Below are positions 43,997 to 47,908 of a stretch of DNA of 64,000 bases, one piece after another. This DNA is from an uncultured bacterium. Its GTDB lineage: Bacteria; Desulfobacterota_D; UBA1144; Nemesobacterales; UBA2774. Below the pieces are notes generated by a model. It had not been told where the DNA came from. It saw only the letters and a program-made list of their open reading frames with translations, and made no database searches. The number at the start of each line of letters is the position of its first letter. Positions within the stretch are counted from its first letter, which is position 1. The stretch covers positions 512,001 to 576,000 of the forward strand of contig CAVPJU010000006.1 of the NCBI GenBank assembly GCA_963705505.1, written 5' to 3'. Both the position numbers and the translations under genes were made by a program.

Positions 43997-44992
43997 TCAG
44001 TTTCCGATCACTTTCCACTGCTCTGCGTCGATGTTTGCAGGTAACGGGTCATAACCGTCTTTAATTACGACCTGCTGACCCTCCTGGCTGAGCACATACT
44101 TTAAGAACTCGAGACGAAGCGGGTCAAGAGCTTCGTTCGGTTTCTTGTTGACATAGATATAAAGATACCTGCCTAGAGGATATGTTTTGTTAAGAACATT
44201 CGCGAGATTCGGTTCTGCGCATTCGCCCGGCTTTTTGCCAAGCTTGAGCGCCTTAACGCCGGAGGTTACATACCCGATTCCGCTGTATCCGATGGCGCCT
44301 TTATCTTCGGTGACGCCCTGAACGACGGATGCAGAGCCGGGCTGCTCCTTGACGGAGTCCTTGTAATCTCCCTTACAGAGCGTATGCTCCTTGAAATATC
44401 CGTATGTGCCTGAGGCCGAATTTCTGCCGTACATGCTTATCGGCATGTTGGCCCAATCGCCCGTCAGTCCGAGCTGCCCCCAGGTAGTAATGTCCTGAGC
44501 CCCGCCGCAAGCCCTGTTCTTCGAGAAAATTGCGTCTAACTGATCCATGGTCACACAATCGAGCGGATTATCTTTGCTAACGAATACCGCGAGTGTGTCT
44601 ATCGAGGTTGAAACCGCAGTCGGCTTGTAACCGAATTTCTTTTCGAAATCGTCAACTTCTTTATCCTTCATCGTACGGGACATGGGACCGAACTGAGCCG
44701 TCCCCTCGATGAGAGCCGGAGGGGCGGTGCTTGAGCCTTTACCCTCGATCTGGCATTTTACGTTCGGGTAATTCTTTGTGAACCCCTCGCACCAGAGGGT
44801 CATGAGGTTATTCATAGTGTCCGAGCCGATGCTGTTGATGTTCCCGGTGACACCGCTTGTTTTGGTGTACATGGGGATAGCCGTATCGACCGTTACGGTC
44901 TCCGCGGCAATACCTATAATTCCCGCCAGTGCCAAGACAAATGCAGCAAGGCCGGCAATTATGCTACCCTTGATAAGTTTTCCTCTAAGCAT
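43997..44992 (-). CDS. pstS: Phosphate ABC transporter substrate-binding protein
   Basis: [40 protein letters not shown]. Confidence 0.95.
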
Positions 44993-45045
44993 TTTTCAAT
45001 ACCTCCATAAGAGTTTTAATCTGGCAAGCATTAAAACCGAGTAAT

Positions 45046-45083
45046 GTTAAGGATGTGTTAAGAGAACATTAAACCCTAGTTAA
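45046..45083 (-). promoter_or_regulatory. Pho-box-like array of four repeats with 11-bp period
   Basis: Plus-strand RTTAA at 45046, 45057, 45068 and 45079 (TTAAY on the minus strand), directly upstream of pstS. Confidence 0.8.
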
Positions 45084-45408
45084 CGGTATTCCGAGCCCGC
45101 TGGTCTTCGTATATTAATATTTTAAATTAAAATCGGCAAGTTGAATAATATCCCCATAGCCGGGAGCACCCTCAAGATTTCAACCTAACCTCGCCTCTAT
45201 CAAAAATGTATACAACTGATATATGACTTAAGTTAGCCGGTTTGAGGGGACGGGGTTGCGGAGCCGGTTAACGGGGGATTAATACGCAATTAATCTTATC
45301 TTCATTATCCGGCATTATCGTGTGGGAGGTGTTTATAACGGGCCCGGTAATTGAGTCTCAGGTTATTCATAGTAAAAACGGAATTGGATTCGGAGAATAA
45401 TAACTAAA

Positions 45409-45990
45409 ATGGAAATACGATCCGTACATCAGATAGCCAAAAGAGAGTGGGAAAACATCTCGGTATCCCTGGAGCTATGCGGGGACATAGGGAAATTCGA
45501 TCTCGCGCGTTACATCGAAAGAGAGCCCGAATTAATCCGCAATCTTATCGGAATGGAGAAGAAGATTCATCAACATGACTATCTCACAAGGGAAGCCGCC
45601 TATGTGTTTACCGAATTGGGGAAGGAAGCGGGAGGGAGACTCGGGCTGAAAGCGGAGCTGGCTAAAGCTTTCGGGGGCGGCTACAGCTGGGTGAGGACGG
45701 GATGGTTCGATCTTATAAACCTTGAGTTCGATGACCTTGATATTCTGGAGGGACACCTGACCCGTAAGATCTTCTTTTTCAGGCTTTTTTTCCCGCTGAA
45801 AGAGGATTTCAGCTGGCTTTTCGATTCCCCGGCCGTTACTTCGAATTTTAAATCCATATTCGAAAGGTTTTTATCCTGGCAAAGGGACCCCGTTGGCTAT
45901 GACAGGGATTTAGAGTCTTACAAGACCGAGATCGATCCGATCAGGGAGGGACTCGCGTCCGCTCTCGATATACAATCCGGACGCTGCTAG
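45409..45990 (+). CDS. Hypothetical protein
   Basis: 193-aa ORF with protein-like composition; no motif recognised. Confidence 0.65.
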   Translation: MEIRSVHQIAKREWENISVSLELCGDIGKFDLARYIEREPELIRNLIGMEKKIHQHDYLTREAAYVFTELGKEAGGRLGLKAELAKAFGGGYSWVRTGWFDLINLEFDDLDILEGHLTRKIFFFRLFFPLKEDFSWLFDSPAVTSNFKSIFERFLSWQRDPVGYDRDLESYKTEIDPIREGLASALDIQSGRC

Positions 45991-46113
45991 CATTGTATAC
46001 CCTCGAATATCCTCCTAACGATTTTCAGGCTGTAAATTCAGGTTTCAAAATCTGATAATACGAGTATAATTTCATTAAGCTTTATGAATATCTGTCTGTC
46101 CAAGGATTGAAAT

Positions 46114-46191
46114 ATGCGCACATATCTTGTTGTGATTTCGATACTTTTGGCGGCCGTATTCATTACCGCCTGCAAGTGCAATCTCGGTTAA
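46114..46191 (+). CDS. Micro-lipoprotein 1 (25 aa, MRTYLVVISILLAAVFITA-CKCNLG)
   Basis: TATAAT at 46065, AAGGA RBS 7 nt before ATG, lipobox ITA-C; paralogue at 46409. Confidence 0.75.
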   Translation: MRTYLVVISILLAAVFITACKCNLG

Positions 46192-46408
46192 ATATGTCCC
46201 TGCGGGACAAAGGTAATCCACTATACGCTTAAGCTCCGGGATATGTCATTTCAATATGCCCGCTGTATCGGCAGTGGAGCGGATTTTCTTCACATGCAAG
46301 TTATGAGAATAAGGCGGAAGCCGATTTGAAGGAAACATTTTGAGAGGCACATTTTAATTGTATAATTCTTTCCTGGTATTAAAATAATTCTCGAAAAAGG
46401 ATATAAGA

Positions 46409-46486
46409 ATGCGCATATACCTGACTTTGTTTTCGATTCTCCTTGTTACGCTTCTCGTTACGGCCTGTCAGTGCGGTATCGGTTAG
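46409..46486 (+). CDS. Micro-lipoprotein 2 (25 aa, MRIYLTLFSILLVTLLVTA-CQCGIG)
   Basis: TATAAT at 46361, AAGGA RBS 7 nt before ATG, lipobox VTA-C; 13/25 identical to the ORF at 46114. Confidence 0.75.
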   Translation: MRIYLTLFSILLVTLLVTACQCGIG

Positions 46487-46540
46487 ACGCAGCGGAGAAC
46501 GAATCCGAACCTTAAAACAATCCTTTTAATTCCCGAACGC

Positions 46541-47022
46541 ATGATTCTGATAATAATGGGTGTAACGGGAGCGGGTAAGACTACAGTCGGGAAGCTCCTT
46601 GCCAGGAAGCTCGGCTGGAGGTTTTATGACGCCGACGAGTTCCACCCGAAAGAAAATATCGAGAAGATGGTTAAGGGCATCTCTCTGACCGACGAGGACA
46701 GACTCCCCTGGCTGAGATCGGTTCGTGATTTTATTAAGGGACGAAATGAGCCTGCCGTCATTGCCTGCTCGGCGCTGAAGAAGTCCTACAGGGATATACT
46801 GGAAGGAAGGCTGCGGTCGATATAAAGTTTATTTATCTCAAAGGGAACGCGGGATTGATAAGGGAGAGGCTCGAAGAGAGGAAGGGGCACTTCGCGGGAG
46901 CTCAGATACTCGAAGGTCAGTTCGATGCGCTCGAAGAGCCGGAAAATGTACTGACTGAAGATATTTCGAACGGCGCTGAATCGATCGCGGAAGATATAAT
47001 ACGTGAGCTTAATTTGAGTTAA
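46541..47022 (+). CDS. gntK: Gluconokinase (one frameshift near 46810)
   Basis: [37 protein letters not shown]; second frame FIYLKG...RKGHF...QFDALEEP. Confidence 0.88.
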
Positions 47023-47041
47023 GCGGAAGGCGCAAATCCGT

Positions 47042-47908
47042 TTACTTCACCTTTTTCCTTCTGGCATCGGAGGCTTTTGAGAGTATTTCCATAAGCGCGT
47101 CCCGGTCTCCGTCCGCAATCGCTTTTTCTATTTTGCCGAGAGAAATCTTAAGCTGTCCGATAGCCAAGAGGATGTTTTCTTTATTGGCATCTAGGATATC
47201 AACCCACATTTCCGGAGAGCTTGCCGCGACCCTCGTATAATCATTGAGACCCCCTCCGGCAAAGTTGAAGAGCATATCCGGATCGTCTGTCGAGAGTAAA
47301 GCATCGACGAGAGAGTAAGCGAGTACGTGAGGGAGGTGGCTTACGAAACCGAAAACACGGTCGTGCACGTCGATGTCCATCTCGTGCACCTCGCTCCCGA
47401 CCAGCTCCCATAGCGTCGCGACTCTGCTTTTTACGACGAGAGGGGTTTTTTCGGTGGGGGTCAGAATGAACCTTCTTCCCTTAAAGAGCTTGGGATCGGC
47501 ATACTTGATTCCCGAATTCTCTGTTCCGGCTATGGGGTGCCCTCCGACAAAGTGCAGATTAGGGGGCATGATCTCCTCTATCCCTCTCACGATTTTTCCC
47601 TTTACGCTCCCGACGTCGGTGATGATCGTCCCCTGGGTCACTGCGGGGATTAAGGACTTTGCGGTTTTTACAATAGCTCCGACGTGAGTGGCAATTACTA
47701 TTATCTCGGCTCCGGAGACTCCTTCTGCTATGTCCCGCGATCCTTCATCGATTATTTCGTTCCTGAGTGCGTATTCGATCGTCTCTTCATCTGTATCTAC
47801 ACCGAGCACGTTTTTTACCTGCTTTGAGCGTTTGAGCGCCCGGGCAAGAGAGCCGCCTATGAGTCCGAGACCGATTATCGCAACCTTTTTGAATTCCTTC
47901 TTCTTCAT
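47042..47908 (-). CDS. tyrA: Prephenate/arogenate dehydrogenase
   Basis: IGLGLIGGSLA, DVGSVK, FVGGHPIAGTE, HD...SHLPH, TRVAAS. Confidence 0.93.
   Translation of the reverse strand: MKKKEFKKVAIIGLGLIGGSLARALKRSKQVKNVLGVDTDEETIEYALRNEIIDEGSRDIAEGVSGAEIIVIATHVGAIVKTAKSLIPAVTQGTIITDVGSVKGKIVRGIEEIMPPNLHFVGGHPIAGTENSGIKYADPKLFKGRRFILTPTEKTPLVVKSRVATLWELVGSEVHEMDIDVHDRVFGFVSHLPHVLAYSLVDALLSTDDPDMLFNFAGGGLNDYTRVAASSPEMWVDILDANKENILLAIGQLKISLGKIEKAIADGDRDALMEILSKASDARRKKVK

Follow-up and report, generated by a model that had tools for sequence, protein, structure and literature searches.

How small can the gene for a bacterial lipoprotein be? The question is raised by two tandem open reading frames (ORFs) of 25 codons each, hereafter micro-ORF 1 and micro-ORF 2, in a 64,000-nucleotide stretch of DNA from an uncultured bacterium of the GTDB lineage Bacteria; Desulfobacterota_D; UBA1144; Nemesobacterales; UBA2774 (assembly GCA_963705505.1, contig CAVPJU010000006.1, positions 512,001 to 576,000). 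We call this whole stretch the window. An earlier reading of the bare sequence, here the original prediction, proposed that both ORFs encode lipoprotein precursors whose processing would leave lipidated peptides of only six residues. Conservation across related genomes indicates that the two micro-ORFs are real, conserved genes, not chance ORFs. We lean, with moderate confidence, toward their products being true substrates of signal peptidase II that would mature to lipidated CxCxΦG hexapeptides. The parts of the two genes are as follows.

46114-46191, + strand: micro-ORF 1, 25 codons plus TAA; product MRTYLVVISILLAAVFITACKCNLG; polar-type tail
46114-46170, + strand: predicted signal peptide of micro-ORF 1, codons 1-19
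46162-46173, + strand: lipobox ITAC of micro-ORF 1, codons 17-20
46171-46188, + strand: predicted mature hexapeptide CKCNLG of micro-ORF 1, codons 20-25
46409-46486, + strand: micro-ORF 2, 25 codons plus TAG; product MRIYLTLFSILLVTLLVTACQCGIG; Gly-type tail
46409-46465, + strand: predicted signal peptide of micro-ORF 2
Codons 17-20 of micro-ORF 2, + strand: lipobox VTAC
46466-46483, + strand: predicted mature hexapeptide CQCGIG of micro-ORF 2

The two starts lie 295 nucleotides (nt) apart, and the translations are exactly those that the original prediction quoted. As it also stated, the peptides share 13 of 25 residues (52%), with synonymous codon differences at shared positions (Y4 TAT/TAC, L5 CTT/CTG, I10 ATA/ATT, L11 CTT/CTC, T18 ACC/ACG, C20 TGC/TGT). 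Pairwise DNA alignment of the two copies limits their likeness to GTATAATT, the AAGGAT motif and the coding part. Both micro-ORFs are unannotated and smaller than gene-calling size.

The same genes recur throughout one lineage. With a profile built from an alignment of 31 distinct peptides, six-frame searches found one to three tandem copies in 29 of the 32 other genomes of the same taxonomic family, spread over five of its seven genera; none of 87 genomes from the phylum's eight other families carries the micro-ORFs. Micro-ORF 2 itself was recovered by the family profile at E 1.3e-14. A six-frame search with one peptide matched 22 of 24 other same-family genomes, mostly with two or three copies in tandem, so that homologues with the same length and stop position, which the original prediction had called for, do exist in relatives. 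A strict degenerate DNA pattern, run on one genome per species across 185,579 species, gave 25 loci. All but one are the same syntenic locus of a single lineage (24 loci, one of them decayed); the last, which has an internal stop, matches by chance and is unrelated. The pattern-match loci are labelled as metagenome-assembled genomes of Candidatus Dadabacteria, Thermodesulfobacteriota or 'delta proteobacterium'. The family is restricted to one family of an uncultured phylum.

Two observations touch on this distribution. Loci L061 and L065, labelled 'uncultured Spirochaetia', have the same locus and flanks, with peptides identical to those of one Dadabacteria-type genus; the labels probably do not reflect the origin of these contigs. 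Within the window's own genome (2.88 Mb, 10 contigs, 51% G+C), no family copies were found beyond the two described here. A loose regular expression picks out 13 other ORFs of 20-32 amino acids (aa) there that end soon after a lipobox-like motif (contigs C6, C7, C8 and C10). These may be chance ORFs or frameshifted starts of (lipo)protein genes, and none resembles the micro-ORF family.

The homologues vary in the manner of protein-coding genes. Across 71 instances (56 distinct) in 37 loci, every peptide has 25 residues except for two 24-residue variants and one truncated copy, and both variants lack one residue of the hydrophobic core while the lipobox and tail are complete. The stop codon stands at one fixed position, yet it is TAA, TAG or TGA in 40, 25 and 6 cases. 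The purifying selection that the original prediction expected is evident in 50 unique coding sequences, which give a pooled ratio of nonsynonymous to synonymous variation (pN/pS) of 0.41. Entropy at codon positions 1, 2 and 3 is 1.03, 0.35 and 1.60 bits, a three-periodic variability that reads as the signature of a translated hydrophobic peptide. Invariant residues show a mixture of synonymous codons: in the same 50 sequences Cys20 is encoded by TGC in 33 and TGT in 17, Cys22 by TGC in 36 and TGT in 14, and Ala19, Thr18 and Gly25 each by four synonymous codons. None of the homologues reads through into a longer protein, the outcome that would have marked them as truncated remnants; their stop-to-stop frames span 26-76 aa, with one of 133 aa. 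These are conserved genes under purifying selection that gene callers have missed entirely.

Expression signals accompany the genes. In the window they are:

46065-46070, + strand: -10 box TATAAT of micro-ORF 1, inside the conserved block GAGTATAATTT
46102-46106, + strand: Shine-Dalgarno sequence AAGGA of micro-ORF 1
46361-46366, + strand: -10 box TATAAT of micro-ORF 2, inside the invariant block TTTAATTGTATAATT
46397-46401, + strand: Shine-Dalgarno sequence AAGGA of micro-ORF 2

The spacings given in the original prediction are correct: TATAAT lies 43 nt (micro-ORF 1) and 42 nt (micro-ORF 2) before the ATG, and AAGGA lies 7 nt before it in both. Within the genus, no other non-coding sequence of the entire intergenic region is conserved as well as the two promoter blocks, of which the first is invariant or nearly so over 10 genomes and the second invariant in 10 of 10. 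Across the family, a strict Shine-Dalgarno motif 5-16 nt upstream is present in 53 of 56 unique copies versus 14.5% of control ATGs, and an exact TATAAT 28-50 nt upstream in 33 of 56 versus 2.5%; the controls were 2,736 ATGs from the same loci. The predicted transcripts have no unusual structure (fold z -1.39 and +0.81), and an Rfam scan of 44900-47300 returned only a meaningless sub-threshold lncRNA match (17.6 bits against a gathering score of 70). An explanation at the RNA level alone is therefore not needed.

What these genes encode follows a rigid layout: Met-Arg, about 15 hydrophobic residues, a lipobox [VIL][TA][AS]C, and then five residues only. Residue by residue, among the 50 unique coding sequences:

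Position 1: Met
Position 2: Arg in 46 of 50; the Lys/Arg of a lipoprotein n-region is present, in both window peptides as well
Position 4: Tyr or His in 50 of 50
Position 6: Thr in 40 of 50
Position 9: Ser or Ala in 50 of 50
Position 17 (-3): Val, Ile or Leu in 49 of 50
Position 18 (-2): Thr or Ala in 50 of 50
Position 19 (-1): Ala or Ser in 50 of 50
Position 20: Cys in 50 of 50
Position 22: Cys in 50 of 50
Position 24: aliphatic or Phe
Position 25: Gly in 41 of 50, otherwise Phe or Leu

Positions 17-20 thus form a canonical lipobox, as originally claimed, and substitutions stay within the residues allowed at -1 and -2 (50 of 50) and at -3 (49 of 50). Conservation is highest in the lipobox, in the second Cys two residues further on and in the tail, which is exactly five residues long. 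Residues 3-16 contain no Asp, Glu, Lys or Arg in either the 31-peptide alignment or the 50 unique sequences, which gives the uncharged h-region of an export signal. Both window peptides match the classical lipoprotein pattern with Cys at position 20 (by regular expression; the pattern asks for Cys at 15-35), a position typical of lipoprotein signals, and ITAC and LTAC boxes also occur in longer candidate lipoproteins of the window's genome. Judged by their sequences, the peptides have every hallmark of lipoprotein precursors.

The genome also encodes the pathway that such precursors would enter. Curated models detect lgt (TIGR00544, 138.9 bits), lspA (TIGR00077, 124.7 bits) and lnt (TIGR00546, 262.7 bits), all over cut-off, and lolCE and lolA likewise exceed their curated cut-offs. 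A VKOR-type disulfide oxidoreductase is encoded as well; DsbB was not found in the window's genome.

A side observation concerns the residue between the two cysteines. It is Ser in 21 of the 50 unique sequences (for example L018 1233-1307), so that A-C-S-C reads as a further lipobox-like motif, which overlaps the first and has Cys22 as its last residue. Such copies may undergo alternative processing to a four-residue product.

The tails themselves come in two types that obey a pairing rule. We define Gly-type tails as CxCG[IV]G and polar-type tails by Asp, Asn, Glu or Gln at the fourth mature position. Among the 30 carrier genomes tabulated, every one of the 25 with at least two intact copies combines a single Gly-type tail with one or more polar-type tails. 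The four genomes with one copy have retained a polar-type tail, and for two of them the assembly is fragmentary. The order of the two types varies between genera, and it varies even within the genus of the window: in the window's genome (G000) and its nearest relative (G006), the tail types of the positional orthologues are reversed relative to the other members of the genus. Flanks and hydrophobic cores of these two genomes align with those of the genus, and the one-plus-one composition is still kept. Loss, too, was joint in one genome. In G007 (L017, locus ~1400-1600) both micro-ORFs have decayed together beside an intact gntK, the downstream kinase gene: copy 1 has a TGA after CRC, two codons past the lipobox Cys, and has lost its original stop, and copy 2 is a start-less remnant of about 55 nt. 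These patterns suggest that selection acts on the six-residue tail and that the two types work together; Gly-type and polar-type products are probably partners.

We propose the following route, each step of which, from translation and insertion through lipidation and cleavage to localisation and the role of the thiol, is predicted. A 25-residue peptide is complete before it leaves the ribosome tunnel, so insertion must be post-translational. The released 25-mer would enter the membrane with its N-terminus in and its C-terminus out, the Met-Arg end staying inside while the short, nearly uncharged tail crosses. Lgt would then add diacylglycerol to Cys20, LspA would cleave before Cys20 and remove residues 1-19, and Lnt would N-acylate the new amino terminus. 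Short peptides are described as adequate substrates in vitro (PMC8048626). The expected product is a triacylated hexapeptide, Cys-x-Cys-x-(I/L/V/F)-(G/F/L), either anchored in the periplasmic leaflet or moved by LolCDE and LolA to the outer membrane. It would retain one free thiol, that of Cys22, two residues from the lipid at the membrane surface. Gly-type and polar-type products could act jointly by means of this residue: it might form a Cys22-Cys22 disulfide, contribute to a thiol or metal site common to both, or capture a partner covalently. In its boldest form, which we offer tentatively and think rather unlikely, the proposal is that these are the smallest natural bacterial lipoproteins yet put forward, a pair of triacylated hexapeptides, one of each tail type, which the general Lgt/LspA/Lnt machinery would produce and which would form, through their single free Cys (position +3), a disulfide heterodimer or a thiol handle tethering a partner protein or metal. 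The pathway would then be making a small ribosomal lipopeptide rather than anchoring a protein.

If the lipoprotein proposal is true, the lipoprotein pathway can turn a 25-codon gene into a six-residue lipopeptide, which would set a new lower size limit for lipoproteins. Lipopeptides could then be ribosomally made without dedicated enzymes. The pairing of one Gly-type with one polar-type tail also supplies a concrete, testable hypothesis of a two-component lipopeptide.

Several points weigh against this proposal. The assignment as lipoprotein signals is based on the PROSITE pattern and our own regular expression. Conservation of Tyr/His4 (50 of 50), Thr6 (40 of 50) and Ser/Ala9 (50 of 50) is unusual for a mere export signal, which suggests something more than export: the whole peptide, or the released signal peptide, may matter. 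Co-translational targeting is impossible for a peptide of 25 residues, and arrival at Lgt in vivo is a prediction only. What the tail does is purely our inference, and the specific role of the thiol carries much lower confidence than the lipoprotein reading itself. None of the neighbouring genes (pstSCA, gntK, tyrA, hisC) is an evident partner. The carrier genomes are related and represent few independent events, so 25 of 25 overstates the independent support for pairing. Among characterised natural lipoproteins in the literature searched, none has a mature part this short; only bulk predictions came up, and preprint supplements may list similar ones. Weighing these points, we regard an extreme, lineage-restricted micro-lipoprotein with an unexplained paired design as the probable nature of the family, and the original interpretation as the best available.

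The gene neighbourhood bears on several other explanations. The neighbours in the window, taken as context and not as functional parts, are:

43997-44992, - strand: pstS, the divergent, conserved upstream neighbour
45409-45990, + strand: a 193-aa orphan gene between pstS and the micro-ORFs, present in some genera only
46541-47022, + strand: downstream gntK-family kinase gene (TIGR01313), in two frames, 46541-46825 and 46855-47022

The locus has a fixed order: divergent pstS, the micro-ORFs, gntK in the same direction, and convergent tyrA and hisC. Copies always lie beside pstS, gntK or tyrA, and the synteny with gntK and, where present, with the 193-aa gene that the original prediction asked about holds across loci. 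Genes for a modification enzyme, exporter or receptor are absent from the neighbourhood, as are maturases of ribosomally synthesized and post-translationally modified peptides (radical S-adenosylmethionine enzymes, YcaO, lanthipeptide synthetase): 20 loci show pstS, pstC, the 193-aa orphan, gntK, tyrA and hisC only. In G011 and G015, which represent the family's two genera without matches, pstS directly adjoins tyrA; gntK is missing there, as is any small ORF like those of the family, and the idea of a diverged version was rejected. G018 (82% complete) gave neither a micro-ORF nor a pstS match, so its miss is uninformative.

One idea considered was that of leader peptides that control gntK. 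Micro-ORFs are kept in G010 (97% complete), G093 and G096, where a TIGR01313 search finds gntK nowhere in the genome, and in G010 the peptides abut tyrA. Conversely, the sister family has gntK in 11 of 15 genomes, and the nine loci inspected have no micro-ORF upstream. Because the micro-ORFs persist without gntK and are missing from gntK loci of the sister family, leader control was rejected.

How do other explanations fare against a lipoprotein precursor? The peptides might instead remain uncleaved as single membrane helices, N-terminus in, with two Cys per chain at the periplasmic face and the likeness to a lipobox incidental or secondary. They could then form a Gly-type/polar-type heterodimer whose four thiols provide a metal or redox site, or modulate a larger membrane complex, as many bacterial proteins of under 50 aa do. 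Residues 3-25, the hydrophobic stretch plus the tail, are long enough for a helix, the conservation of positions 4, 6 and 9 is unusual for export signals, and paired tail types suggest a hetero-oligomer; a sub-threshold similarity to CcoS/FixS (E 0.07-0.18) fits as well, though it is likely compositional. Against this, three lipobox positions and the Cys are matched with variation only within allowed residues, which would have to be coincidence, and the genome encodes Lgt and LspA, for which a sequence of this kind, if exposed on the outer side, should be a substrate. Nor does any known small-membrane-protein family score over threshold, and on balance we consider the uncleaved helix possible, if doubtful. 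Much less probable are type I toxin-like or lysis-type membrane peptides, tandem and repressed by antisense RNA or mRNA structure. Small size, hydrophobicity, tandem intergenic placement and strong promoters suit such peptides, and one consensus-level antisense promoter-like site does lie downstream of copy 1 (46249..46220, minus strand). That site is not conserved even within the genus, however, and promoter-like matches occur at chance level (2 versus 2.4 expected). Copies only 45-85 nt apart in one genus leave little room for an antitoxin RNA gene, the transcripts are not unusually structured, and no Pfam toxin family appears at E up to 10. To our knowledge, type I toxins do not show the strictly conserved lipobox and six-residue tail seen here.

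A further possibility, which we rate marginally lower still, is that the released signal peptide is the functional product and that the tail merely secures cleavage by LspA. The model comes from Gram-positive peptide pheromones, some of which derive from lipoprotein signal peptides or signal-peptide-sized precursors; pheromone-inhibitor precursors, at 21-23 residues, are similar in overall size to the micro-ORF peptides. Conserved Tyr4, Thr6 and Ser9 in the N-terminal part would fit. The tail (Cys22, the hydrophobic residue 24, Gly25 and its fixed length) is conserved at least as well as that part, however, and the pairing rule concerns the tail and holds even where hydrophobic cores are swapped between types. 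A dedicated exporter or receptor gene is also lacking nearby. Least probable of all is that the micro-ORFs do nothing as peptides, being chance ORFs, truncated remnants of lipoprotein genes or leader ORFs regulating gntK. In favour of this are their size, too small for gene callers, their unvarying place directly upstream of gntK in genomes that have it, and the frameshifts of the assembly. Yet length and stop are kept over five genera under purifying selection, three genomes keep the micro-ORFs without gntK while the sister family has gntK without them, and homologues never extend into longer proteins. Distribution, conservation and the gntK comparison effectively refute a non-functional origin.

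The lipoprotein precursor favoured here has no counterpart among recognised families, in keeping with the original prediction. Neither window peptide has a Pfam or NCBIfam match over threshold, and a Pfam scan at E up to 10 returned only FixS (E 0.18) and LPAM_1 (E 0.77), with no match to the entericidin family PF08085. LptM (NCBIfam NF047847) scored 13.5 and 15.8 bits against a cut-off of 27.7 and aligned with residues 1-20 only, which are the signal peptide; sub-threshold lipoprotein similarities are confined to signal-peptide models, the LptM signal region and LPAM_1. Eight family sequences, both window peptides included, have no exact copy in a collection of about 15 billion proteins. Literature searches gave no description of the micro-ORF family or of a conserved family with a six-residue mature part.

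Parallels with characterised systems are partial. Entericidins are among the smallest characterised bacterial lipoproteins, with precursors of 41-48 aa and a mature part of some 20-odd residues, and Braun's lipoprotein has a length of 78 residues. Like the micro-ORFs, entericidins EcnA and EcnB (PF08085) are small lipoproteins from two tandem paralogous genes, and they are membrane-active; the micro-ORFs differ in leaving only six predicted mature residues with a second invariant Cys. The E. coli type I toxins Ibs/Sib and Ldr/Rdl are tiny hydrophobic ORFs in tandem in intergenic regions, a likeness that extends to the micro-ORFs. The micro-ORFs differ in having no conserved antisense promoter, structured mRNA or family match, and we know of no type I toxin with a conserved lipobox. 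Pam3CSK4 is a synthetic triacylated hexapeptide that mimics lipoprotein N-termini. Together with the diacylated FSL-1, it shares size and architecture with the product predicted here after maturation, in which five residues follow a lipidated Cys. Both are chemical mimics, and a genome-encoded hexapeptide version was not found described in the literature searched.

Published work supplies closer precedents for individual steps. FSL-1 is named as an Lnt substrate (PMC8048626). The synthetic 24-residue N-terminal peptide of Braun's lipoprotein resembles the micro-ORF products in consisting of a signal peptide, a lipobox and a few mature residues, about 24-25 in total, and is presented there as the classical in-vitro Lgt substrate, accepted without a folded mature domain (Sankaran and Wu 1994, via PMC8048626). 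That peptide is a laboratory fragment, whereas the micro-ORFs are natural, conserved stand-alone genes. PEP3458 arrays of Leptotrichia are likewise described as tandem, lineage-restricted micro-lipoproteins with conserved Cys and Gly (bioRxiv 10.64898/2026.08.11.744246). By that description, PEP3458 ORFs have 48-81 aa and a folded helix-plus-sheet mature part with Cys17, Gly31, Cys34, Gly40 and Cys45, which sets them apart from micro-ORF peptides of 24-25 aa without positions 31-45; organisms and habitats differ too. In a library of 3,552 signal-peptide-bearing microproteins of 2-50 aa reported in the same preprint, about 74% have a lipobox, so very short predicted lipoproteins are, on that account, common in small-ORF catalogues. 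PflE of Campylobacter jejuni, as described, is a small lipoprotein with an essential lipobox Cys and an apparent in-trans lipid anchor for FlgP (bioRxiv 10.1101/2025.04.02.646747), and offers a possible model for the role of a minimal lipopeptide. PflE differs in its 57 aa, its mature part of 41 aa, its flagellar context and the absence of a CxC motif (same preprint).

Some features of the neighbourhood stand apart from these questions. For the 193-aa gene, no family in Pfam or NCBIfam matches. Loci of genera g1 and g4 contain it, whereas it is missing from those of g2, g5 and g6; its product shows 84-88% identity within the genus and about 60% in one further genus. The gntK reading frame breaks near 46804-46825. 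In related-strain contigs from two public runs the two frames are joined, one single base being missing at 46804 and another at 46812 or 46814. Without these bases gntK returns to one frame, and relatives carry both halves in one frame, so the split gene is either an assembly error or a strain-specific pseudogene.

Just upstream of pstS lie four hexamers, TGTTAA, TGTTAA, CATTAA and AGTTAA (+ strand), 11 bp apart at 45045-45083. This TTAACA-like array near pstS is conserved in relatives, the first two hexamers in particular, and resembles a Pho-box-type site at which a response regulator would control the pst operon. We considered whether the micro-ORFs are under Pho control or supply a phosphorus-free lipid surrogate. 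The array lies 140-290 nt from micro-ORF starts and no such repeats occur at the micro-ORF promoters, so the phosphate-control idea is unsupported and was dropped; locus L022 keeps a micro-ORF without the pstS-proximal repeat region.

Finally, two species carry a third micro-ORF with the tail CKCEFL, in L018 (G004) at 1636-1893 and in L037 (G003) at about 1700-2060. A partial duplicate of the gntK 5' end (38 aa, 50% identity) precedes it, which indicates a segmental duplication of a micro-ORF together with the start of gntK.

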